Below, in pieces: positions 5,325 to 20,045 of a stretch of 20,587 bases of DNA. Position 1 is the first letter of the stretch, and each line of letters begins with the position of its first letter. Source of the stretch: a virus (Duplodnaviria; Heunggongvirae; Uroviricota; Caudoviricetes). The stretch lies in the IMG/VR virus record IMGVR_UViG_3300029862_000030, positions 1 to 20,587 of that record. One strand, given 5' to 3'. The position numbers and the translations under genes are program-made. The notes below the pieces were generated by a model. That model saw only the letters and a list, made by a program, of their open reading frames with translations. It was not told the origin of the DNA and made no database searches.

Positions 5325-5669
5325 TCAGGCTATTACCTGAAATTCAAGCGTGGCTCTGCTCAGACGGGAGTCAGGATCATACCCCTGCGTTTTAGAAATA
5401 ACGGAGGGTGCCAGTTTTCTTACCGCATCAAGCGCCTGCTCACGAATATTATCTGCGTCATCAGGTACTGTCGCCCAGACATCGATCTGCACGGTAATTC
5501 TGGATTCAGCCTGCCCATCAAGCACATCAGATGCCGTGTCAGACACCACAGAAAACACCAGCCACGGCGGAGATACCGCAGGCTTTCCCTCCGTCAGCGG
5601 GACCACATAAGGATAAACCTGTCCTCCGGCCAGCTGAGACAACAGGGAATACAGTGTGCCCTCCCTCAT
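5325..5669 (-). CDS. Tail completion / tail terminator-like protein (DUF3168-like; functional analog of lambda gpU)
   Basis: 114-aa ORF immediately upstream of the major tail gene. Size and position are typical for this family; the sequence assignment is from memory and position. Confidence 0.55.
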   Translation of the reverse strand: MREGTLYSLLSQLAGGQVYPYVVPLTEGKPAVSPPWLVFSVVSDTASDVLDGQAESRITVQIDVWATVPDDADNIREQALDAVRKLAPSVISKTQGYDPDSRLSRATLEFQVIA

Positions 5670-6115
5670 TTACTTAAGACCTCATCAATAGCCTGATTCA
5701 TTCGCTGTATGGCAACCTGCGCCGCCAGCTCCTCTGTCGTATCGAAAGCCGGACGAATGAATGGATGCGCGGGCATGTTTATCGTTCCCAGCTCCACAAA
5801 GCGCCAGTAAAATGCATTTCGGGGATCGCTGGCTTTCATGCTGTTATCACTGTTTCCGGTTCGCAGGTTCCGTCCGCGAATGTGGACACCCGAGATAATT
5901 TCCCCCCGACGCTTTGAACGCTGAGTGAGAACAACCACATTTTTCTTCAGTTTCCCGGTTCGCTCCGGCGCACGTTCAACAACTGCATCCCGCATAACTT
6001 CAGCACCGGCACGGGTGGCATCGCGCAGAACCTTATTGTTTTCTGCCCTGCTGAGCGCCTCCAAATCCCGTGCAATATCCGCCAGGCCGGAAAAATCAAG
6101 ACTGAAATCCATCAC
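5666..6115 (-). CDS. HK97 gp10-like neck / tail completion protein
   Basis: 149-aa ORF with a 4-nt overlap onto the neighbouring gene. Position and size match the HK97 gp10 family. Confidence 0.6.
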   Translation of the reverse strand: MMDFSLDFSGLADIARDLEALSRAENNKVLRDATRAGAEVMRDAVVERAPERTGKLKKNVVVLTQRSKRRGEIISGVHIRGRNLRTGNSDNSMKASDPRNAFYWRFVELGTINMPAHPFIRPAFDTTEELAAQVAIQRMNQAIDEVLSK

Positions 6116-6450
6116 ACATTTCCCTTCAGGCTGCAGAGCATTTCAAGCCGGGTAGCGCGTGCATCCGGTATTGGTGGACCTTCTATACCCAGAATCGCGC
6201 CTTTGAATGCACCGGTCAGCACTTTCAGACGTGAAGTCGCTGTCACATCGCGCCGGAATCTCATCCAGACTCTGACCGTAGCCTGAGCGGTTTCTGCTCC
6301 GCCTGAGATTATCTCCCTCCCGCTGATACCCTTAACTTCTGCCCATACGGTAGCTCCCTCCGTCACCGTCTCCACCGGATGCCCTGACGGAGAGCGGGCG
6401 GTGGTGACATTCAGAATAATTACGCGATCACGTAATCTGCCCGCCTGCAT
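6112..6450 (-). CDS. Head closure / head-tail joining protein (HK97 gp9-like)
   Basis: 112-aa ORF between the connector and the gp10-like gene, overlapping its neighbour by 4 nt. Assigned by position and size. Confidence 0.55.
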   Translation of the reverse strand: MQAGRLRDRVIILNVTTARSPSGHPVETVTEGATVWAEVKGISGREIISGGAETAQATVRVWMRFRRDVTATSRLKVLTGAFKGAILGIEGPPIPDARATRLEMLCSLKGNV

Positions 6451-6458
6451 GTCTCCTC

Positions 6459-6776
6459 CTACAAAGGAATAAAACGATAAGGCTCCAGAAGAGAAGAAAA
6501 ACCAAACGGGACTGGTGCCTTGCTGACATCTGAGGAATTTTCCCGGTTTTCGTACCAGTGCCCGACCAGCAACATGAGCGCCAGCAAAACATCATCAGCT
6601 ATAAGCACCCCTTCAGGATCACCTTCCGGCACCGTCTCCTCATAAAGCTTACGGTTGATAAAATTTTCTGCCTTGCGGCAGGCAGCCCGGAAATACAGCA
6701 TCAGTAACTCATCATCAGTTGCATCATCTGTATCAATACGGCACTGCGCCCTGAGTTTTTCCACTATTGCTGCCAT
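6459..6776 (-). CDS. Head-tail connector protein (HK97 gp6-like)
   Basis: The track ORF 6459..6956 was trimmed to the internal ATG at 6776 (MAAIVEKLRAQ...), which has a CAGGAG Shine-Dalgarno sequence 8 nt upstream. The first 60 codons of the track ORF overlap the capsid 3' end and a terminator hairpin. Confidence 0.6.
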   Translation of the reverse strand: MAAIVEKLRAQCRIDTDDATDDELLMLYFRAACRKAENFINRKLYEETVPEGDPEGVLIADDVLLALMLLVGHWYENRENSSDVSKAPVPFGFSSLLEPYRFIPL

Positions 6777-6809
6777 CAGAAACTCCTGCCCGCAACACTG
6801 TGCGGGCAT

Positions 6810-6830
6810 AAAAAAACCGCGTCGGCGCGG
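6810..6830 (-). terminator. Candidate intrinsic terminator directly after the major capsid gene
   Basis: Minus-strand reading gives CCGCG-CCGA-CGCGG followed by T7, 20 nt after the capsid stop codon. Confidence 0.6.
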
Positions 6831-6852
6831 TCTGTAACTGAACAACGAGTGG

Positions 6853-8070
6853 TTATTTGCCAGTGAGCGCCTTGATGGCTGCCACATCTTCCAGCACACA
6901 GTCAAAACGATGGAAAGCCAGAAATGCCACCTGATCAAACTCAGCATAACGCTCAACCAGACGTTTCAGTTCCATATAAGTAACGCGGCGAATGATAAAG
7001 CGGTTGAAATCCCCCAGGAAAATGAATTTTTTTCCGGTACCAATCCCGTCAATAGCCTGATCAATAACATAAGGGATCCCCAGCACAGTAGCCGGCGTAC
7101 CGCCTGCAATATCCGGCAGCCATAACGGGCGTTTCTGTCCATCCTCCATCTCTTCAATAGTCTGCAATGTGGCATCATTGAATGCCCAGCGGTATTTCGG
7201 CCCACCACGATATGCCGGATCAATGGCATGTTTCAGGGCATTCATTTCTTTCCAGGTGAAAGCGGCAGAGGCTGCAGTCTGGATGGTTCCCGTCACCGAC
7301 GCTGCCAGCCCTTTTGGCTGTAACGGTGATCCCGTTCCGGTCCCCTGAACCAGATATTTTGCCTCTCCACGACCAATACGCTGGGCAATACGGTTTGCCA
7401 GATAAGATTCAATATCCACCCCACTGTCCTGGAGCAGCTCATTGGACACACGAATTATTTTTGATGACAGCTTTTTAGCCCCCAGAATAGCGGTCCCGAA
7501 CGTCACATCCTGTTCCGTTGCGGCTGTATTTTCCGCCAGCAGTTCGCCCTCTTCAGTCGTGCCATCAGACGTTGACCAGGTGATATCCTGCCCGGTTGAT
7601 GTGGTCAGAAGTTGCGCCACACTGGCAATCCCGCCATAAGCCTTCATGGTGTCAATGATTTTGTTACGCATCTGCGTGGGCACCGTATATCCGCCCTGAG
7701 AATCCGTTGTTACACTCTGAGCCCGCAGTTCACGCATCAGATTACGCTCTTCAGCATTCAGTTCTGCAAATCCGGCACGCAGAAAACGGTTAAATGCCGC
7801 AGCGCGCTTCTCTTCCACCGCCTTTTTCCCGTTCTCCGCCTCATTATTCTGGCGCTCTTCCGGCCCGGACTCATCCACATATGCCTGATCCTGACGGCGC
7901 AACTCTTCTTCACGGGCGATTTGCTCATCCAGCGCATCCAGCTCAGCTTTCGCCCTGTTCCACTCTGCCCGTTGCTCATCAGTCCATGCGTTATCACCAA
8001 TTTTTTCATGCAGTGCACGCATATCCTTTGCAATGGTGTTTCGTTTTTGCTTCATCTCATGAAGTTTCAT
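6853..8070 (-). CDS. Major capsid protein, HK97 fold, with an N-terminal delta (scaffolding) domain
   Basis: 405-aa ORF. The N-terminal ~100 aa are charged and coiled-coil-like (delta domain), followed by a capsid-like body. It follows the prohead protease, as in HK97. Confidence 0.9.
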   Translation of the reverse strand: MKLHEMKQKRNTIAKDMRALHEKIGDNAWTDEQRAEWNRAKAELDALDEQIAREEELRRQDQAYVDESGPEERQNNEAENGKKAVEEKRAAAFNRFLRAGFAELNAEERNLMRELRAQSVTTDSQGGYTVPTQMRNKIIDTMKAYGGIASVAQLLTTSTGQDITWSTSDGTTEEGELLAENTAATEQDVTFGTAILGAKKLSSKIIRVSNELLQDSGVDIESYLANRIAQRIGRGEAKYLVQGTGTGSPLQPKGLAASVTGTIQTAASAAFTWKEMNALKHAIDPAYRGGPKYRWAFNDATLQTIEEMEDGQKRPLWLPDIAGGTPATVLGIPYVIDQAIDGIGTGKKFIFLGDFNRFIIRRVTYMELKRLVERYAEFDQVAFLAFHRFDCVLEDVAAIKALTGK

Positions 8071-12519: not shown

Positions 12520-13035
12520 ATGGATAAAACCAGAAAATATGACAGAGCCTTACAACTTGAAATCCTCAATGCCCTTATAGATTGCGCGCCTAACTCTTTA
12601 AACAAGGCACAGGAGCGAGACCTCATTGAGAAGTTTGACAGTTACGATCACTTTGTGGCGTGCATGTTATACCTTGAAATGCATGGTCTCGTTTCCACCC
12701 CCTTCATACGCAGTGACACCATGGCTGGCGTTGAGTTTATCTTCTGTGCCCCTAACTGCTACATTACAGAAAAAGGAATTGATTTTCTTCTCGATGATGG
12801 CGGCTTAAGTGCGATCCTTAAAGTTCAGACCTTTCGGTTACACAGTGACACGATTGTTGCCCTTGAGGATATAATCCGTGTCGCAAATATATCTGAAGAT
12901 CAGAAGAAGGGATTGATTTCAAAACTCCGAGAGCTTCCGGGAGACGCCATAAAACATTTGACCCTACAGTTACTGACTCAGGGGGTTCTGAATCTGCCGA
13001 ACGCACTTCGACTAATTCAAACAACCCTCCAGTAG
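12520..13035 (+). CDS. Hypothetical protein, unknown function; AT-rich gene on the opposite strand to the late operon
   Basis: 171-aa plus-strand ORF with a GGAG Shine-Dalgarno sequence 9 nt upstream of the ATG. Base composition is visibly more AT-rich than the flanking late genes. It is inserted between the HNH endonuclease and the small terminase gene. Confidence 0.6.
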   Translation: MDKTRKYDRALQLEILNALIDCAPNSLNKAQERDLIEKFDSYDHFVACMLYLEMHGLVSTPFIRSDTMAGVEFIFCAPNCYITEKGIDFLLDDGGLSAILKVQTFRLHSDTIVALEDIIRVANISEDQKKGLISKLRELPGDAIKHLTLQLLTQGVLNLPNALRLIQTTLQ

Positions 13036-13170
13036 GGCTAAACTCATCTGAGGGGCGAATTAACTCAAATTTGCCCCATCCCAGTTTTTCACTTAAAACA
13101 ACCCAAAATCCCTCCCGGGTATCTGCATGAATATAGAAACTATTTTTATGCATTACAGCAGTGAATATTA

Positions 13171-13521
13171 TCATCGAATACGTTCCCTTGCTGTCTTCTC
13201 TCTGTGGCATTCCCTGCATAACGACTCAAGATTGGAGTCATCATCGGTGCCGCCATGAGCTTTTGGAATCATGTGGTCTACAGTCCTGGCCTCAACGGCT
13301 CGTCCATTGCGCAGACAGTTCTTACACAGATGGTTATCACGCTTCAGTATACGCGCACGTATAACATCCCATTTCGAGCCATAGCCACGCTGGTGGCGAC
13401 TCAGTCCGCGTTGATGCTGTACCCATCCTTCACCACGATGTTTATCGCAGTAACCAGAACTGTCTGTGGTTGTACCTGCGCATCCACGCTTACGGCAGGC
13501 ACGTGGGATTCGTGATGGCAT
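13171..13521 (-). CDS. HNH endonuclease (packaging-associated, HK97 gp74-like)
   Basis: 116-aa ORF with Cys pairs flanking an H-N-H motif region (CKNCLRNGRAVEARTVDHMIPKAHGGTDDDSNLESLCRECHREK). Confidence 0.85.
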   Translation of the reverse strand: MPSRIPRACRKRGCAGTTTDSSGYCDKHRGEGWVQHQRGLSRHQRGYGSKWDVIRARILKRDNHLCKNCLRNGRAVEARTVDHMIPKAHGGTDDDSNLESLCRECHREKTARERIR

Positions 13522-13563
13522 AAATACCTCATACCCTGCGAAATGTTTACCACGATAAAAAGG

Positions 13564-14028
13564 CTACTTAATGCACTGAGTGCGGATATACTCCTGTGCC
13601 CCTTCCAGTTGCATCTGCATCGTCATCAGCCGCTCTCTGAGGGTGAAATAATCCCGTTCAGCGGTGTCTGCCAGTCGGGGGCTGGTTGCATTATCCACGC
13701 CGGAGGCGGTGGTGGCTTCACGCACTGACTGACAGACTGCTTTGATGTGCAACCGACGACGACCAGCGGCAACGTCAGCGCGAAGAGTTTCATTTTCAGC
13801 CTTCGCATCAGCTAACTCCTTCAGGTATTTTGCATCGAGTGCAGCAACATCACGCTGGCGTATCTGCATGTCAGTAATGATTGCGGTCGCCTGGTTGAGT
13901 TTTTCCATCACATTATCGCGTTGCGCTTTGTAGGTAATGGCATTATCACGGTAATGATTGACCGCCCACGACAGGCAGACGATGATGCAGATAACCAGAG
14001 CATAAATAATCGCGGCGACTCTGCTCAC
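13564..14028 (-). CDS. Rz: Spanin inner-membrane subunit (Rz / i-spanin)
   Basis: Near-identical over long stretches to lambda Rz as recalled ([27 protein letters not shown]..., [25 protein letters not shown]). The track ORF begins at TTG 14043; the likely true start is GTG 14028 (VSRVAAII, aligned with lambda MSRVTAII), overlapping the endolysin stop. Confidence 0.9.
13626..13808 (-). CDS. Rz1: Spanin outer-membrane lipoprotein subunit (Rz1 / o-spanin), nested inside Rz in the +1 frame
   Basis: 60-aa ORF with the lipobox LVVVGC and the proline-rich segment [29 protein letters not shown], almost identical to lambda Rz1 as recalled. Confidence 0.85.
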
Positions 14029-14558
14029 TGATCTATCCCCCAACAGGCTAATGCGCTTTCCTGGTCACGACGAATAACCTGTCCATAGCAGTTATTTGAA
14101 CGTATGCGGCAATCGCGCCCACCATCTTTTATCCACCAGCGAATCGCCTCGCATGCGCCCTTACGATCACCGGCATTCAGCCGCTTATAAAACGTCGACG
14201 GAAAACACTTACCGGGGCCAATGTTATAGGGACAGAATGACGCGATACCCGCTTTTTGTGGTTCGGTCATTGGTACTTTAATATTGCGCTCTACCCATGC
14301 CAGCGCCTTATCACGTTCAATAGCGTTAACCTGGTCGCATTTTTCCTTCGACAGTTTCATACCGGGAAAAACGGGTTTTCCATCCACCATCGTGGCACCC
14401 CGACAGATGGTCCAGATGCCGGAACCATCGCGGTATGCCGTTGTGTGGTTACCTTCTTTTTCATCCAGAAACTGGTCGAGAATGTCAGGCGCAGGCGCAC
14501 CTGCGGCAATCAGCGCCAGAACGGCAGCCGACAGGCCGTATCTGATTTTTGCGTTCAT
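14025..14558 (-). CDS. SAR endolysin (lysozyme, phage 21 R / Qin RrrQ type)
   Basis: 177-aa ORF. The N-terminus ([27 protein letters not shown]) is a Gly/Ala-rich, weakly hydrophobic signal-anchor-release segment. The body is lysozyme-like and matches my recollection of the E. coli Qin prophage lysozyme. Confidence 0.9.
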
Positions 14559-14608
14559 GGATATTTATCAGGATTTATCGGTTCCGAATACCTGGATATG
14601 TTAAGTCT

Positions 14609-14953
14609 TCAGCCCAGCGGTGGAGTCTTCAGAGAACCAGTAATTCTTCCCGGTAGCTTTCCTTTGTAGGTTATCCACACATTCTGCGCCTCTAAAATTA
14701 CGGGGCGCTTTTCCGGCGACTGCTCACCCCCTTCACATAACCCGGCAGCAACATCCAGGAAGACCTGTCTGATGCTCCTTCTGGCTGCTGCCTCATAAAA
14801 CTCCAGCGCGGCACCTTCAACACGGTCCAGCGAGATGTCCAGGTCAAAAATTTCACCGTCAAAGCGTTTTTTGTCCCGTAACGCTAAAGTTACCGTAACT
14901 TTATTCTCAAAATTGCGGATCCCTTTCACAATCAGTTCATAGTTTTGAGTCAT
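14609..14953 (-). CDS. YdfR-like (DUF1327-type) conserved protein of unknown function between holin and endolysin
   Basis: 114-aa ORF. Its position between holin and lysozyme is the same as ydfR in the E. coli Qin prophage. The family assignment is from memory. Confidence 0.65.
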   Translation of the reverse strand: MTQNYELIVKGIRNFENKVTVTLALRDKKRFDGEIFDLDISLDRVEGAALEFYEAAARRSIRQVFLDVAAGLCEGGEQSPEKRPVILEAQNVWITYKGKLPGRITGSLKTPPLG

Positions 14954-14957
14954 TGAA

Positions 14958-15173
14958 TTACTCTCCCCGTGCAGCCTTACGCTTGTCTTCTCTGATTTTG
15001 AAGTACAGATTTGTCAGATAAGTCAGGAAGCCCAGAACCAGACTCCCCAGTACACCAATCGCAGCCCACTGTGACGGACTGACCTGATCAAGCCACTGTA
15101 AAAACCAGTAGCCAGCACTGCCTGCGGAGGTGCCGTAGGCAATGCCCGTTGAAATTTTGTCCATGGATTTCAT
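14958..15173 (-). CDS. Class II pinholin (phage 21 S-type) with a dual-start motif
   Basis: The 71-aa product [71 protein letters not shown] matches the phage 21 S holin as recalled. The track ORF 14958..15272 was trimmed to the ATG at 15173, which has a GGAGG Shine-Dalgarno sequence. M1 and M4 give the antiholin/holin dual start. Confidence 0.9.
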
Positions 15174-15310
15174 AGCCTCACCTCCGCAGCGAACGGATGG
15201 CGTAGTTATAAGGGGAGCGAAAAAGAAAGAATGCGCGATTGCGCAATATGGTAACGTCAGGGTATTATCCACTGGCTGAATAGATCACTTCACGTTTTTT
15301 GTTCCTTGCC

Positions 15311-15338
15311 GCCCGTATCCATATGCGGGCTTTTTTTT
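15311..15338 (+). terminator. Candidate plus-strand intrinsic terminator
   Basis: Plus-strand hairpin GCCCGTAT..ATATGCGGGC (imperfect) followed by T8. Confidence 0.45.
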
Positions 15339-15344
15339 GCATGT

Positions 15345-15374
15345 AAAAAGGCCCCAACACATGTGCGTGGGGCC
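15345..15374 (-). terminator. Candidate minus-strand intrinsic terminator upstream of the holin (possible tR'-like element)
   Basis: Minus-strand reading gives a GGCCCCA/TGGGGCC stem around an 11-nt loop containing the palindrome CACATGTG, followed by TTTTTAC. Confidence 0.45.
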
Positions 15375-15574
15375 TGAGAGTATACATGGTTTCAGTCAAC
15401 TGCATGGTGCCGGGTGCCTCCCGGTGAATTCAGTACCAGCACCTGAATCCGCGATTATCCCATATACCTACTCGCTGATTGCCCATCCGCACAGGGGGAT
15501 TCACCATGCCAGTTTCTTTTAACAAACTCCCCGCAAAACAGACAACTGTCAACCGTCTGAATTGTGAGACATTT

Positions 15575-15603
15575 AAAAAAAAGGCCCGCAAAAGCGAGCC
15601 GGG
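15575..15603 (-). terminator. Intrinsic terminator downstream of the tRNA cluster
   Basis: Minus-strand reading gives CCCGGCTCGC-TTTT-GCGGGCC (7-bp stem with one G-T pair) followed by T8, about 12 nt after the 3' end of tRNA-Arg(TCT). Confidence 0.6.
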
Positions 15604-15614
15604 AAAAATAAGTC

Positions 15615-15691
15615 TGGCGCGTTGTACTGGATTCGAACCAGTGACCGATTGCTTAGAAGGCAATTGCTCTGTCCGGTTGAGCTAACAACGC
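15615..15691 (-). tRNA. tRNA-Arg (anticodon TCT, reads AGA), argO-like
   Basis: Hand-folded from the reverse complement: acceptor stem GCGTTGT/ACAACGC, D arm GCTC..GAGC, anticodon stem ATTGC/GCAAT with loop CTTCTAA, T arm CTGGTTCGAATCCAG, discriminator G and an encoded CCA. Similar to E. coli argU. Confidence 0.8.
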
Positions 15692-15704
15692 AGGGTACAG
15701 ATAA

Positions 15705-15781
15705 TGGACCGCCATCGAGGACTCGAACCCCGCGCAACCAGCTTCGAAGGCTGGTGCTCTATCCTGATGAGCTAATGGCGG
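15705..15781 (-). tRNA. tRNA-Arg (anticodon TCG as read by hand, reads CGA), argN-like
   Basis: Hand-folded: acceptor stem CCGCCAT/ATGGCGG (C1-G72), D stem GCTC/GAGC, anticodon stem CCAGC/GCTGG with loop CTTCGAA, T arm CGGGGTTCGAGTCCTCG and an encoded CCA. The anticodon call depends on my loop assignment. Confidence 0.65.
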
Positions 15782-15788
15782 TATGTGA

Positions 15789-15864
15789 TGGTGGCCCTTG
15801 CTGGATTTGAACCAGCGACCTGGCGATTATGAGTCGCTCGCTCTCACCACTGAGCTAAAGGGCC
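15789..15864 (-). tRNA. tRNA-Ile2 (anticodon CAT, lysidine type, reads AUA), ileZ/ileX-like
   Basis: Hand-folded 76-nt sequence GGCCCTTTAGCTCAGTGGTGAGAGCGAGCGACTCATAATCGCCAGGTCGCTGGTTCAAATCCAGCAAGGGCCACCA, which closely resembles E. coli tRNA-Ile2 (ileX) as recalled. Anticodon loop CTCATAA. Confidence 0.8.
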
Positions 15865-15904
15865 GGGAGCCGCATAATAACGACGCGTAATTAATTCTTC
15901 AATA

Positions 15905-16243
15905 TCATCCGTTCTGGCTGACTAAATCCTGTACTTCCCGAACCGTCTGCTCAAAACGTTCAGTCTCCAGCTCAACGCCAATTGCACGACGCCCGAGCGC
16001 CAGTGCCGCTTTCACTGTCGAACCCGACCCCATGAAAAAATCTGCAATCAGGTCACCCGGACGACTGCTAGCGCTGATTATCTGCTGCAGCATTTCTGCC
16101 GGTTTTTCGCACGGATGTTTCCCGGGATAGAACTGCACCGGTTTATGCGTCCAGACATCGGTATACGGCACCTGCGCCGTCACGCCAAAATACCGCCGCA
16201 GTCGGCATTCACAACCACCAGCGCATTTAACGTTCAGGCACAA
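15905..16243 (-). pseudogene. 5'-truncated DNA N6-adenine/N4-cytosine methyltransferase remnant (C-terminal part only)
   Basis: The 112-aa ORF contains HPCEKP (the HPTQKP-type motif) and DFFMGSGST (the FxGxG AdoMet-binding motif) near its C-terminus. These are the C-terminal half of beta-class amino-methyltransferases. No DPPY motif or N-terminal half is present; the reading frame runs into the AT-rich region upstream of the porin. Confidence 0.6.
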
Positions 16244-16693
16244 AAAAACCCGCTCATCGGCGGGTTTAAGCTGTGTGACGAAGTAACTACTCTTAACAGC
16301 ATAACCAATTTTTTACGTACGTAAACTACTAAATGATATTTGTGAGAATGCCACCGAGTGTTCAAAACACCACCACAAATACATAAGAAAATTTCAACAA
16401 ATAACCAATTAATAATTTCAGATGTTATTTTTAGTTTGTTTAAATTAAGCTAAAGAATTATAGACTGCTTATAAATAAGTTCCATTAATATAAATTAGCT
16501 AATAGATTTATTTTTGTTCAAACAAGAGCCATAAATAGGATTAGATAGAAAAGGTTCAGATAAAAATAGAGATCTACTTCACAAATTAAATGAGAAACTA
16601 AAACTTACATCTTGAAATAATCACATTGATTAGATGAATATTTATCGCGCAGTGACATCATTTTTTAATAATAGTTCAAAAAAAGGGTGTACA

Positions 16694-17776
16694 ATGAAAA
16701 AATTAACAGTGGCAATTTCTGCTGTAGCTGCATCAGTACTGATGGCGATGTCTGCTCAGGCAGCTGAAATTTATAATAAAGACAGTAACAAGCTGGATCT
16801 ATACGGGAAAGTTAATGCCAAGCACTACTTCTCCTCTAATGATGCAGATGATGGTGATACTACTTATGCCCGTCTTGGCTTCAAAGGTGAAACCCAAATC
16901 AACGATCAACTGACTGGTTTCGGTCAGTGGGAATATGAATTCAAAGGCAACCGCGCTGAATCTCAAGGTTCTTCCAAAGACAAAACCCGTCTTGCATTTG
17001 CAGGCCTGAAATTTGGTGATTACGGCTCAATCGATTACGGCCGTAACTACGGTGTAGCATACGACATCGGTGCGTGGACTGACGTTCTGCCAGAATTCGG
17101 TGGTGATACCTGGACCCAAACAGATGTGTTCATGACTGGTCGCACTACTGGTGTTGCAACTTATCGTAACAACGACTTCTTTGGTCTGGTCGATGGCCTG
17201 AACTTTGCTGCTCAGTATCAGGGTAAAAATGACCGCACTGACGTAACTGAAGCCAATGGTGATGGTTTCGGTTTCTCCACTACTTATGAGTATGAAGGAT
17301 TCGGCGTGGGTGCAACCTATGCTAAATCAGATCGCACTGACGGTCAGGTCGCCTATGGTAAGAGCAAATTCAATGCCTCCGGCAAAAATGCGGAAGTATG
17401 GGCTGCAGGCCTGAAATATGATGCGAACAATATCTATCTGGCTACCACATATTCTGAAACTCAGAATATGACCGTTTTTGGTAATAACCATATTGCAAAC
17501 AAAGCACAAAACTTTGAAGCAGTAGCACAATATCAGTTTGACTTCGGTCTGCGCCCATCTGTTGCTTACCTTCAGTCAAAAGGTAAAGACCTTGGTGTTC
17601 ATGGTGACCGAGACTTAGTCAAGTATGTCGATGTCGGTGCTACTTACTACTTTAATAAAAACATGTCCACTTTTGTTGATTACAAAATCAACTTAATTGA
17701 CGATAGTAAGTTTACCAAAACAGCTGATATTGATACCGACGACATCGTCGCTGTAGGTCTGGTTTACCAGTTCTAA
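16694..17776 (+). CDS. nmpC: Outer membrane general porin, NmpC/OmpC/OmpD family
   Basis: The track ORF 16634..17776 contains the signal peptide [23 protein letters not shown] followed by [16 protein letters not shown] and a C-terminal ...VGLVYQF beta-barrel signature, matching NmpC as recalled. The start was trimmed to the MKKL Met; my nucleotide count in that line disagrees with the track frame by 1 nt, so the start is good to about 1 nt. It is on the opposite strand to the phage late genes and preceded by about 370 nt of very AT-rich DNA. Confidence 0.9.
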
Positions 17777-17779
17777 TCT

Positions 17780-17950
17780 GATTACGAAAAAGATATGTTG
17801 CGGGAGGCGTTGCCTCCCCAACATATAAGTGGCTCCCTCAAGCCACTTCCTTTAGAAGCACAACCTTGCTTCTAACTATATAAACCTTCTGTTATATATT
17901 ACCCTTTATTTTTGGGGGCGTCTCAACGCCCCATTTTTAATAATTTTTAG
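17780..17950 (+). ncRNA. Candidate structured 3' region / small RNA downstream of the porin (IpeX-like position)
   Basis: Three successive plus-strand hairpins (GGGAGGC-GTT-GCCTCCC, AAGTGGCT-CCCTCA-AGCCACTT, GAAGC..GCTTC) followed by an intrinsic terminator (GGGGCG-TCTCAA-CGCCCC then ATTTTTAATAATTTTT). In E. coli K-12 DLP12 the IpeX sRNA is reported downstream of nmpC; I cannot verify identity from sequence alone. Confidence 0.35.
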
Positions 17951-17965
17951 TAAACAATTGGCATA

Positions 17966-18349
17966 TTAATTAGAGTTATTAACAACGATATCCATCTCTA
18001 ACTGGATATCTAATGCCATTAACATCCCTTCAATTATGCCCTCAGCCTTCTGTAACCTTTTCCCGATATAACCATCAGAGCAGCAATGCTTACCTGCCAG
18101 TGACATGAATGTCATACCGACTACATAATAATCTACTAATAAATCGTGCAAATCGCTGTTGTTCTTTTTCAGACGGGCCATGCACCCGCAAATGATCATA
18201 GCGTCATCGTCACAACATTGCGGGCGAGATTTTACTTTTGAAGTAATTAATCCCTTAAAACCGGCGGCAATGGACGACCAGGTCACATCTTCATGATTAT
18301 TAGCCGCCCACGCTCCCCAACGCTCAAGAACCATCTGAATATCACGCAT
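17966..18349 (-). CDS. Late-gene antiterminator Q (DLP12 QuuD-like)
   Basis: The 127-aa product from the ATG at 18349 ([22 protein letters not shown]...) matches my recollection of E. coli QuuD. The track ORF starts 5 codons earlier at an alternative TTG. It lies downstream of rusA and ylcG, as in DLP12. Confidence 0.8.
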
Positions 18350-18434
18350 CAACTTACTCCACAAAAATCAGACCAGAACGCCAATTACAAGCAAAAATCA
18401 ACAAAACAGTATTAGTTGATTGTTATCTCTGACT

Positions 18435-18572
18435 TCATACTCCTGCTCCTGTCAGGGTTTTGGCGTAATTCTTCAGTATTCGGTAATCGGTCAAAACAGA
18501 ACCGGGGAAACGATATAAGCGCAGATGCCCCCAGCGGTGGCGAAGAAGTTCTGCCATATAAAACTCAAACAT
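18435..18572 (-). CDS. YlcG-like small protein
   Basis: Hand translation from the ATG overlapping the rusA stop (TGATG) gives [45 protein letters not shown] (45 aa). It is below the track cutoff. The position between rusA and Q matches ylcG of DLP12. Confidence 0.45.
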   Translation of the reverse strand: MFEFYMAELLRHRWGHLRLYRFPGSVLTDYRILKNYAKTLTGAGV

Positions 18573-18934
18573 CATTCATTCCCCATTTCGGTGATGGTCA
18601 GTTCCAGCCTCCCACCTTTGGTAACAGGCATCTTCACAACGCGGTAATCAACGACCTGAGCATCATCCAGCCAGAAACCTGCTTTGGTGAGTGCGTCAAA
18701 AGAGGCTTTTTGTAGATTATCCAGGTCACGGCGACGGCGATCCGGCATGTGGCACTCAATGCGGATTTTCACAGGCATAGCCAGACCGATATCCAGCATT
18801 GAGCCTTTAATGATTCGGGCGACGTTATCGCGGTATGCCTGCCCTTCTGCGCTGATGTGCGTGCGCCCTCGATTATGGCGGTAGTAGCGGTTATTGCTCG
18901 GCGGCCAGGGTAGTGTGATGTGGTAAGTATTCAC
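18572..18934 (-). CDS. rusA: Holliday junction resolvase RusA
   Basis: The 120-aa product [26 protein letters not shown]...ITEMGNE is nearly identical to E. coli RusA as recalled. Confidence 0.9.
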
Positions 18935-19221
18935 GCCTTAATTACCCCCTCTTTCAGCCAGATAACCTGCGTTCTCGCCATACCTTCCAGCGCGCATTCT
19001 TTTGCATATCCAGCGTCAACAAAATGCGTGCGGCGGTCGATTTCGTCGTGGCAGGCAGAACATGCAATGGTGGCAATCAGGTCTGGCGGTTTCGTACCGG
19101 TGCCGCACAATCCAGTCAGCCGGATATGTGCCAGTACAGACGTTTCAGGGTTGCCATTACATACGCCAGGGATTCTTACCTGGCATTCCCGACCACGCGC
19201 TGCTTTTCTCAAATCAGCCAT
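18931..19221 (-). CDS. YbcO-like protein (DUF1364, putative nuclease)
   Basis: 96-aa product from the ATG at 19221 ([28 protein letters not shown]...), with an AGGAGG Shine-Dalgarno sequence. It is Cys-rich and overlaps the rusA start. The track ORF is extended 13 codons upstream. Confidence 0.7.
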
Positions 19222-19384
19222 GATTCCTCCTTGCTGCCAGTCGCAACCATTTTTTATCAACCAGGCTAGCGGTATATCCGAGCAGTGTTGGTATTTCGGA
19301 TGGCTTCAGCTCAGGTTTACGCTTACGACGATTTGGTACTTTGTAGATGTGTCCGTTCATGACACGAATAAGCGGTGTAGCCAT
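19214..19384 (-). CDS. ninE: NinE-like protein
   Basis: Hand translation gives a 56-aa product [56 protein letters not shown]. Its start overlaps the upstream stop (TAATG) and its stop overlaps the ybcO-like start. Below the track cutoff. Confidence 0.65.
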   Translation of the reverse strand: MATPLIRVMNGHIYKVPNRRKRKPELKPSEIPTLLGYTASLVDKKWLRLAARRNHG

Positions 19385-19839
19385 TACGCCTCCTGCTTGT
19401 CGCGCAGCAGCTGGAACTCGCAGCTCTGCGGAATAGTCAGGTGGCAGCCAATATTCATCGCCCAGGCTTCAACCTTACACAGGAAGACATACATCTCTCC
19501 GGTATCAAGATCGGAGGTATGGCGTAACGACTGGATAGTAGTGATTTCGCCGGTTACGACATCAACCAGGTCCTTGGTTTCATAACCGAGGTATGTGTGT
19601 TTGAGAGCATCTTTTACCCATGCTGCGGTAGCGAACGATTTCCCCCTGCTGATGAGGTATTCACTGATTTCGCTGTACCACATGTGGCTGAGTGCATTCT
19701 GGGAAAGACTGCGTCTCTCTCGCCACGGTTTAAGCACCATGCGAAAGCATTTGCCGTCTTCCAGATAAGGCTGGATCTGCTGACCGATAGCGGTGAAGTT
19801 ACCGCGATGCAATTTGATGCCATCTTGTGGGAGGTTCAC
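19384..19839 (-). CDS. NinB/YbcN-like DNA-binding recombination protein
   Basis: 151-aa ORF with an [13 protein letters not shown] motif, similar to the SLDQN region of lambda NinB. It sits at the head of the nin block and matches my recollection of DLP12 YbcN. Confidence 0.65.
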
Positions 19840-20045
19840 GCTTCACCTCCACAGAGGTCAAACGCTAGATGCAAAGAATTGCAGGTGCATTTCTGCATCT
19901 GTGAAAGGAGAAGATAGTTTGGATTGTATGTGCGCATAAACGTCCCCGTTTAGCGCAGAAGTCACCGGAGTTGTTCAGGCTCCGATTACTTAATTATGGC
20001 AAGTTGATTATCGCAAATCAAAGGTTTTAATTGTGCTTTATTCTT

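Follow-up and report, generated by a model that had tools for sequence, protein, structure and literature searches.

A probable ileZ-argN-argO tRNA operon with an empty stx2AB site in a lambdoid Escherichia coli prophage

Stx2-converting phages (Stx2a_1447; 933W type) carry three tRNA genes, ileZ, argN and argO, and a "pS tRNA promoter" is listed between q and stx2 in a study of O157:H7 (PMC2858043). We analyzed 20,587 nucleotides (nt) of a Caudoviricetes genome (IMG/VR record IMGVR_UViG_3300029862_000030, positions 1 to 20,587; the window, meaning this whole stretch), which contains exactly three tRNA genes, all on the minus strand and spanning 15615-15864 (ARAGORN), with the same three genes, order and late-gene strand as in these phages. 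Sequence comparison indicates that this trio is very probably the ileZ-argN-argO tRNA operon of lambdoid (Stx-phage-like) E. coli prophages, present here with an empty stx2AB site. The cluster is an already known, very common and ordinary prophage module; annotated in public phage records and found in about half of complete E. coli genomes, it carries little weight as a discovery.

The genes are transcribed on the minus strand in the order Ile2 (CAU), Arg (UCG), Arg (UCU), and each encodes its 3' CCA. Scores against the Rfam tRNA model are 72.5 bits for ileZ, 56.2 for argN and 70.1 for argO, with a gathering score of 29 and E-values of 2e-14 to 6e-10, far beyond chance. A preliminary description, made from the letters alone, had placed an Ile-CAT, Arg-TCG and Arg-TCT trio at 15615-15864 and proposed a tRNA predictor as the check; ARAGORN called all three genes with these anticodons, and the outer limits of the calls equal the coordinates given there. 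The features of the operon and its downstream border are as follows.

15789..15864, minus strand: ileZ, tRNA-Ile2, anticodon CAU, 76 nt including the encoded CCA (ARAGORN, Rfam)
15705..15781, minus strand: argN, tRNA-Arg, anticodon UCG, C1-G72, U73, A20, 77 nt (ARAGORN, Rfam)
15615..15691, minus strand: argO, tRNA-Arg, anticodon UCU, G73, A20 (ARAGORN, Rfam)
15874..15902, minus strand: sigma-70 promoter-like site, TTGAAG-17 nt-TATTAT, then G+C-rich GCGGCTCCC (consensus scan)
15575..15600, minus strand: intrinsic terminator of the tRNA operon, 7-bp stem (6 G-C), 4-nt loop, eight T
15571..15574: empty site of the stx2AB cassette, at which both stx2AB flanks of Stx2a_1447 abut (blastn, base-level alignment)

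The Stx2a reference was Stx2a_1447 (AP012536; segment numbered L002), in which the genes are annotated as ileZ, argN and argO. Window 16201..15574 aligns to L002 5001..5630 at 93% identity (blastn), a likeness of ~93% that covers the 3' end of a methylase gene, the promoter, the tRNAs and the terminator, and window 15571..15481 aligns to L002 6963..7053 (blastn and base-level alignment). The stx2 promoter region, stxA and stxB, which occupy L002 ~5631-6962, have no counterpart in the window, and no stx gene was found after the trio in the window. Since both stx2AB flanks abut here, stx2AB would represent a clean 1.33-kb insertion or deletion at 15574/15571, and the window shows, on this alignment, a cargo site in its unfilled state, immediately behind the T-run that ends the argO terminator. 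A search for direct repeats flanking the stx2 cassette gave only a weak, imperfect 7-nt pair in L002 (ATCTGCG/ATCTGTG), too short to interpret. The likeness to the ileZ-argN-argO cluster of Stx phages that had been claimed at the outset is borne out by order, anticodons and the 93% identity to AP012536, and so is the claim that the tRNAs stand without toxin cargo; in the proposed synteny comparison, the trio occupies the same Q-to-lysis position as in Stx phages, with the stx2AB flanks contiguous. The trio segment is also 99% identical to the toxin-free phage PhiR49_2.

To place this arrangement among E. coli genomes, we searched 5426 complete genomes with a 250-nt trio query at a coverage of at least 80%. 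The trio is present in 2578 genomes at 7589 places, with up to 13 per genome, and stx2AB in 599 genomes at 740 places. The argO terminator is directly contiguous with the STnc100-family small RNA (sRNA) element in 1025 of the 5426 genomes, including O157:H7 strains with several copies, and the same empty-site junction occurs in three phage records (PhiR49_2, vB_EcoS-611R1 and Nil3). Downstream of argO, 46 IMG/VR loci with sufficient flank have stx2A (15 loci), STnc100 (12 loci) or other sequence (19 loci). A toxin-free trio is the usual state in E. coli and reflects no special retention, the empty site being more widespread than the occupied one, and the persistence of the tRNA operon independently of the toxin weakens the idea that its main role lies in toxin translation.

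The operon is framed by transcription signals at both ends. On the minus strand, the stem-loop GGCTCGCTTTTGCGGGCC at 15600..15583 is followed by eight T; this strong hairpin 3' of argO agrees with the earlier claim of a terminator belonging to the cluster, and it is kept in Stx2a, Stx2c and Stx2e phages, where it stands just upstream of stxA. A distance of 9 nt separates the promoter-like site from the mature 5' end of ileZ. Among 118 ileZ-like genes with 32 distinct upstream contexts, a -35 TTG and a -10 TATTAT recur at the fixed 17-nt spacing in 31 contexts, and the spacer and upstream flanks vary, with at least four unrelated sequence types among the 32. The conservation of the hexamers is good comparative evidence for a working tRNA promoter, a function that we infer from this pattern. 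The tRNA operon looks like a self-contained module with a predicted promoter and a terminator of its own; of the two features by which a "moron" is recognized (own promoter and own terminator), the terminator is clear, and the promoter is drawn from consensus, conservation and the name given in the literature.

The identity of each tRNA was assessed against sampled K-12 tRNA genes. The phage ileZ is 89-92% identical to the host ileX and ileY genes (89.5% and 92%, respectively) and 70% identical to elongator tRNA-Met (metT/metU). It keeps the acceptor pairs relevant to TilS, with C4-G69 and C5-G68 where tRNA-Met has U4-A69 and A5-U68, and its 5' end reads GGCCCUU as against GGCUACG in tRNA-Met. 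The pairs C4-G69 and C5-G68 are determinants for TilS. ARAGORN labels the CAT gene "Met", and a sequence identical to ileZ is annotated as tRNA-Ile by NCBI PGAP. An elongator or initiator tRNA-Met is ruled out by the identities to metT (70%) and ileY (92%) together with the acceptor pairs, and ileZ is a predicted AUA-reading tRNA-Ile2 of the ileX/ileY type. An A27.C43 mismatch, in place of G27.U43 in host ileX/ileY, is invariant in all eight aligned loci, over which ileZ is nearly invariant, its sole change being a C-to-A in the D-loop of two Stx2e loci.

Both argN and argO carry Arg identity elements (A20 and C35, with G36 in argN or U36 in argO), and the discriminator purine of the sampled host Arg tRNAs (A73 or G73) is present in argO as G73 but not in argN. 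argO is 71% identical to host argU, with A20, G73 and the anticodon loop CUUCUAA in common, and is nearly invariant over the eight loci, which have differing flanks. The minimum-energy fold of argN is a perfect cloverleaf, and where it departs from the copy in the Stx2a phage, the changes fall in loops or preserve pairing (G.U to G-C). Its acceptor stem is CCGCCAU/AUGGCGG, with C1-G72 and the discriminator U73. The C1-G72 pair, earlier remarked on as unusual for the Arg-TCG gene, is real and conserved, and among the sampled K-12 tRNAs it recurs only in tRNA-Pro (proM). Charging of argN with Arg is likely despite U73 and C1-G72, position 73 being a minor determinant. The four K-12 Arg isoacceptor types sampled have the anticodons ACG, CCG, UCU and CCU, leaving argN (UCG) without a host counterpart among them. 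To our knowledge these four are the complete K-12 set, so that the host lacks UCG.

In relatives of this locus argN is more variable than its neighbors. Its anticodon arm is replaced or deleted in phiP27, Stx2c, Stx2e and two toxin-free prophages, in which ileZ and argO are intact; ARAGORN makes no call on these altered copies, one of which PGAP labels "tRNA-OTHER" (the phiP27 copy lies at L012 2915-3005, the others in L013, L014, L015 and L017). Copies of argN with at least 90% identity occur in ~1505 E. coli records. Across 119 IMG/VR loci there are two main architectures, Ile2-Arg(UCG)-Arg(UCU) in 50 and Ile2-Lys(UUU)-Thr(UGU)-Gly(UCC) in 43, and the Lys(UUU) gene shares the argN scaffold: C1-G72, U73 and the same D and T arms. 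The Lys(UUU) variant is seen at L016 2578-2654, in IMG/VR loci L040, L042 and L107, and in L027 and L115; its position 33 is C33, but A33 in Buttiauxella and one viral contig, and the gene could represent a tRNA that escapes nucleases or one of a non-standard kind. Single IMG/VR contigs (L049, L097 and L122) have the argN scaffold with UCU or GCG, by point changes in the loop, or with UAU and A33, variants that may be real remoulding or sequencing errors.

A further copy of the scaffold, 81 nt long, lies next to yahN and is not annotated. Its acceptor, D and T arms match those of argN, with C1-G72, U73 and CCA, but its "anticodon" stem has 7 bp and the loop 6 nt. This copy has a match in 5231 of the 5426 E. 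coli genomes, essentially all of them, and also occurs in E. albertii, E. ruysiae, E. whittamii and Shigella. The copy of E. coli B, at L018 3001-3081, lies between yahL and yahM and overlaps the start of yahM by 11 nt; others are in L021, L023, L024, L029-L031, L035, L036 and L039. The 81-nt copy gave no Rfam match at an E-value of up to 1, and a literature search on this element found nothing. The C1-G72 pair appears to mark a scaffold family with a labile anticodon arm, the argN of the window being itself canonical by sequence. We regard it as a tentative and rather doubtful proposition that argN belongs to a distinct tRNA scaffold (C1-G72, U73, conserved D and T arms) that has undergone repeated exchange of its anticodon arm, with versions comprising Arg-UCG, Arg-UCU, Lys-UUU (C33 or A33), Ile-UAU and the 6-nt-loop or 81-nt forms unlike decoding tRNAs. 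If the cassette is truly modular and fast-evolving, pressure from anticodon nucleases, or some function other than translation, may have as much influence on the slot as codon supply; this family is the one observation here that could merit closer study.

The genes around the operon were identified by Pfam, Rfam and annotated relatives. On the minus strand upstream the order is YbcN, YbcO, RusA and then Q, and after the holin come a YdfR-family gene, lysozyme and Rz, followed by HK97-like terminase, portal, capsid and tail genes. The features nearest to the operon are listed below.

17966..18349, minus strand: Q antiterminator (Pfam Phage_antitermQ, 3.5e-53; 99% to DLP12 QuuD by blastp)
16634..17776, plus strand: NmpC/OmpC-type porin gene (Pfam Porin_1, 1.1e-150), between Q and the late leader
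16241..16300, minus strand: late-leader element, conserved and ending in the terminator AAACCCGCCGATGAGCGGGTTTTTTT; candidate pR'/tR' module (terminator scan)
15905..16243, minus strand: 3' remnant of a DNA methyltransferase gene, a 112-codon open reading frame as against a full length of 352 amino acids (aa) in Stx2 phages
15339..15538, minus strand: STnc100-family sRNA element (RF02076) that carries a terminator of its own and separates the tRNA operon from the holin
14958..15173, minus strand: holin, class II (phage 21 type), first lysis gene (Pfam Phage_holin_2_1, 4.4e-35)

The trio lies between Q (18349..17966) and the holin (15173..14958), upstream of the lysis cassette as the preliminary description had it; its further statement that the holin directly follows the cluster terminator does not stand, as argO and the holin are separated by 442 nt that contain the ~200-nt STnc100 element. 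This element scores 133.1 bits in Rfam (gathering score 47) over model positions 1-206 of 206, and the STnc100 family has been described and related to PasD sRNAs (bioRxiv 10.64898/2026.05.13.724894). The plus strand carries, at 15311-15338 and back to back with the STnc100 terminator, a strong hairpin that resembles a terminator and has eight T; no gene on that strand ends close by, and the hairpin may stop antisense transcription. The methylase remnant, the C-terminal third of the protein, covers only positions 135-220 of 221 of the Pfam N6_N4_Mtase profile, and PGAP annotates an identical sequence as a pseudogene without its N-terminus; PhiR49_2 and MS8345 have the same truncation, and in both the holin is annotated as a 71-aa protein. 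The porin gene is intact and 87% identical in DNA to the IS5-disrupted nmpC of DLP12. The region is mosaic, with window 20022..16244 DLP12-like at 87-97% identity and 16298..13000 97% identical to toxin-free phage PhiR49_2, and only 20 of the 5426 complete genomes have porin, methylase remnant and ileZ joined in exactly this way. The prophage appears to combine a DLP12-like Q and porin region with a methylase remnant, tRNAs, STnc100, lysis and head genes as in PhiR49_2.

The late promoter was sought by comparison of relatives. Downstream of Q, no convincing sigma-70 match was found directly after the gene (17965..17780 scanned). The late-leader element (GTTAAGAGTrGTTACTTCGyCACACAGCTTAAACCCGCCG..CGAGCGGGTTTTTTT) lies ~40 nt past the Q stop codon in PhiR49_2 and MS8345 and comes after reverse-strand cargo in Stx2a_1447 and DLP12. 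In Stx2a_1447 just 21 nt separate Q from this cargo, so that the late promoter cannot lie there, and the element at 16300..16241 is a candidate for the pR'/tR' module on the strength of its comparative position, which likewise disfavors a late promoter immediately after Q. The same element stands upstream of the late region in DLP12, PhiR49_2, MS8345 and Stx2a_1447, though their Q proteins are 46-56% identical. If the element is pR'/tR', the porin would lie outside the late operon and the tRNA operon within the late leader, and with three terminators between late promoter and holin, expression of the lysis genes should need Q.

Expression and use of the trio can be outlined from these features and from established tRNA biology. 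In the lysogen, the operon would be transcribed constitutively from its own promoter, with transcripts ending at the argO terminator. Upon induction, synteny suggests that Q-modified RNA polymerase from the upstream late promoter would read through tR' (16267..16246) and the terminators of argO and STnc100, three in all, and so add the tRNA precursor to the late transcript. Host RNases would free the tRNAs, as is established in tRNA biology; TilS would turn C34 of ileZ into lysidine and permit AUA reading, as its identity elements suggest, argN (UCG) would read CGA and probably CGG, and argO (UCU) would read AGA and AGG. The added supply may ease translation of genes rich in minor codons, among them the phage late genes and further genes that the host has gained horizontally. 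The toxin would be absent by reason of a cargo site after the argO terminator that is in its unoccupied state here and filled by the 1.33-kb stx2AB in Stx2 phages.

We consider codon supply somewhat the favored candidate for the selected function of the trio. The window late genes (4501 codons) contain, per 1000 codons, AUA 5.6, AGA 5.8, AGG 5.1, CGA 5.8 and CGG 13.3; the values are 1.9, 1.2, 1.0, 3.5 and 5.2, respectively, in 16 K-12 core genes, and at most 1.1 for each of the five codons in 27 ribosomal and elongation-factor genes. Relative to K-12 genome-wide frequencies of the standard codon table, AGA (26 observed, 9.5 expected), AGG (23 and 5.4) and CGG (60 and 24.3) are enriched 2.5- to 4-fold in the late genes (p < 1e-5). 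The trio plausibly helps this phage's late genes with minor Arg codons. In stx2AB, AUA reaches 36.6 per 1000 (68% of Ile codons) and AGA 14.6 per 1000, and the trio suits the codon needs of stx2AB much better than those of the phage's own genes.

Several points weigh against codon supply and the scheme above. The late genes show no clear excess of AUA (25 codons as against an expected 19.4, p = 0.12) and a weak one of CGA (p = 0.011), and the porin has no AUA, AGA or AGG codons and hence no need of the trio. Of the AUA/AGA/CGA enrichment that had been suggested as a check on the late genes and the porin, AGA and, mildly, CGA stood in the late genes; AUA did not clearly do so, and neither AUA nor AGA occurs in the porin. 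The expected counts come from the frequencies of the standard codon table, and the K-12 sample that was computed covers only the 43 genes given above. argN has U73, whereas sampled E. coli Arg tRNAs have A73 or G73, and it is disrupted in the related prophages phiP27, Stx2c, Stx2e, WP4 and CE12, which indicates that it is dispensable. Finally, the late promoter is placed by comparative position alone. The codon choice of the porin resembles that of a highly expressed host gene.

The same data bear on an unlikely but not negligible alternative, in which the trio is mainly an evolutionary passenger, selected in stx-carrying relatives and kept by linkage and Q-to-lysis recombination with little benefit to this phage. 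The AUA and AGA contents of stx2AB, set against 5.6 and 5.8 per 1000 in the window late genes, are what such a history would predict, and the truncated remnant of the neighboring methylase gene, the decay of argN in several lineages and the mosaic nature of the region are also consistent with it. The dominance of toxin-free copies (7589 trio places versus 740 stx2AB places) argues otherwise, as does the over-use of AGA, AGG and CGG in the late genes; the near-invariance of ileZ and argO and a promoter kept across many toxin-free contexts point to selection independent of stx.

Distinctly less probable is a counter-defensive role, with the trio replacing host tRNAs cut by anticodon nucleases during infection or induction. 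Colicin D, which cleaves tRNA-Arg, and PrrC and PARIS, which act on tRNA-Lys, are such nucleases. The occupation of the same slot by Ile2-Lys(UUU)-Thr-Gly in related prophages (43 of 119 IMG/VR loci) lends this idea some substance, and the Lys(UUU) gene on the argN scaffold has C33 or A33 for the near-universal U33; anticodon-loop changes of this kind have been described for nuclease-escape tRNAs. The tRNAs of the window, however, have canonical anticodon loops, that of argO (CUUCUAA) being the loop of host argU with no escape change, and no defense or nuclease gene was found linked to the locus in this analysis. In a recent study, tRNA matches flanking the Pas and STnc100 sRNAs were read as integration hot spots (bioRxiv 10.64898/2026.05.13.724894), from which the tRNA matches here would be att-site remnants of integration and not expressed phage genes. 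We reject this as exceedingly improbable: the genes are full length with encoded CCA, the promoter and terminator are conserved, the trio lies mid-prophage between Q and holin and not at a prophage end, and the same arrangement is found in isolated phage genomes. Codon supply remains the function that we favor for the trio.

Compared with described relatives, the locus combines features of several prophages. In DLP12 (K-12), ybcN-ybcO-rusA-quuD-nmpC are 87-97% identical to the window, the porin is likewise on the opposite strand, and the late leader and terminator are the same; DLP12 has no tRNA trio, methylase remnant or STnc100 match between nmpC and essD. PhiR49_2 (PV340570, ECOR13) and the MS8345 prophage share the toxin-free module at 97-100% identity, from the methylase remnant through the trio, STnc100, the holin and the lysis genes to the terminase; they have another Q allele (50% identical), no porin and the late leader directly after Q. 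Relative to Stx2a_1447, the methylase gene of the window is truncated, with homology starting at 16201, its Q is of the DLP12 QuuD type and 46% identical, and, unlike in that phage, Q and the late leader are separated by a porin gene. STnc100 is also present in Stx2a_1447, just 3' of stx2B (L002 6996-7211, 153.8 bits), so that the 1.33-kb stx2AB, absent from the window, lies in the Stx2a phage between the argO terminator and STnc100. Set beside these phages, the window would serve as a textbook case both of an apparently autonomous tRNA operon and of stx2AB as discrete cargo between the terminator of a tRNA operon and an STnc100 element.

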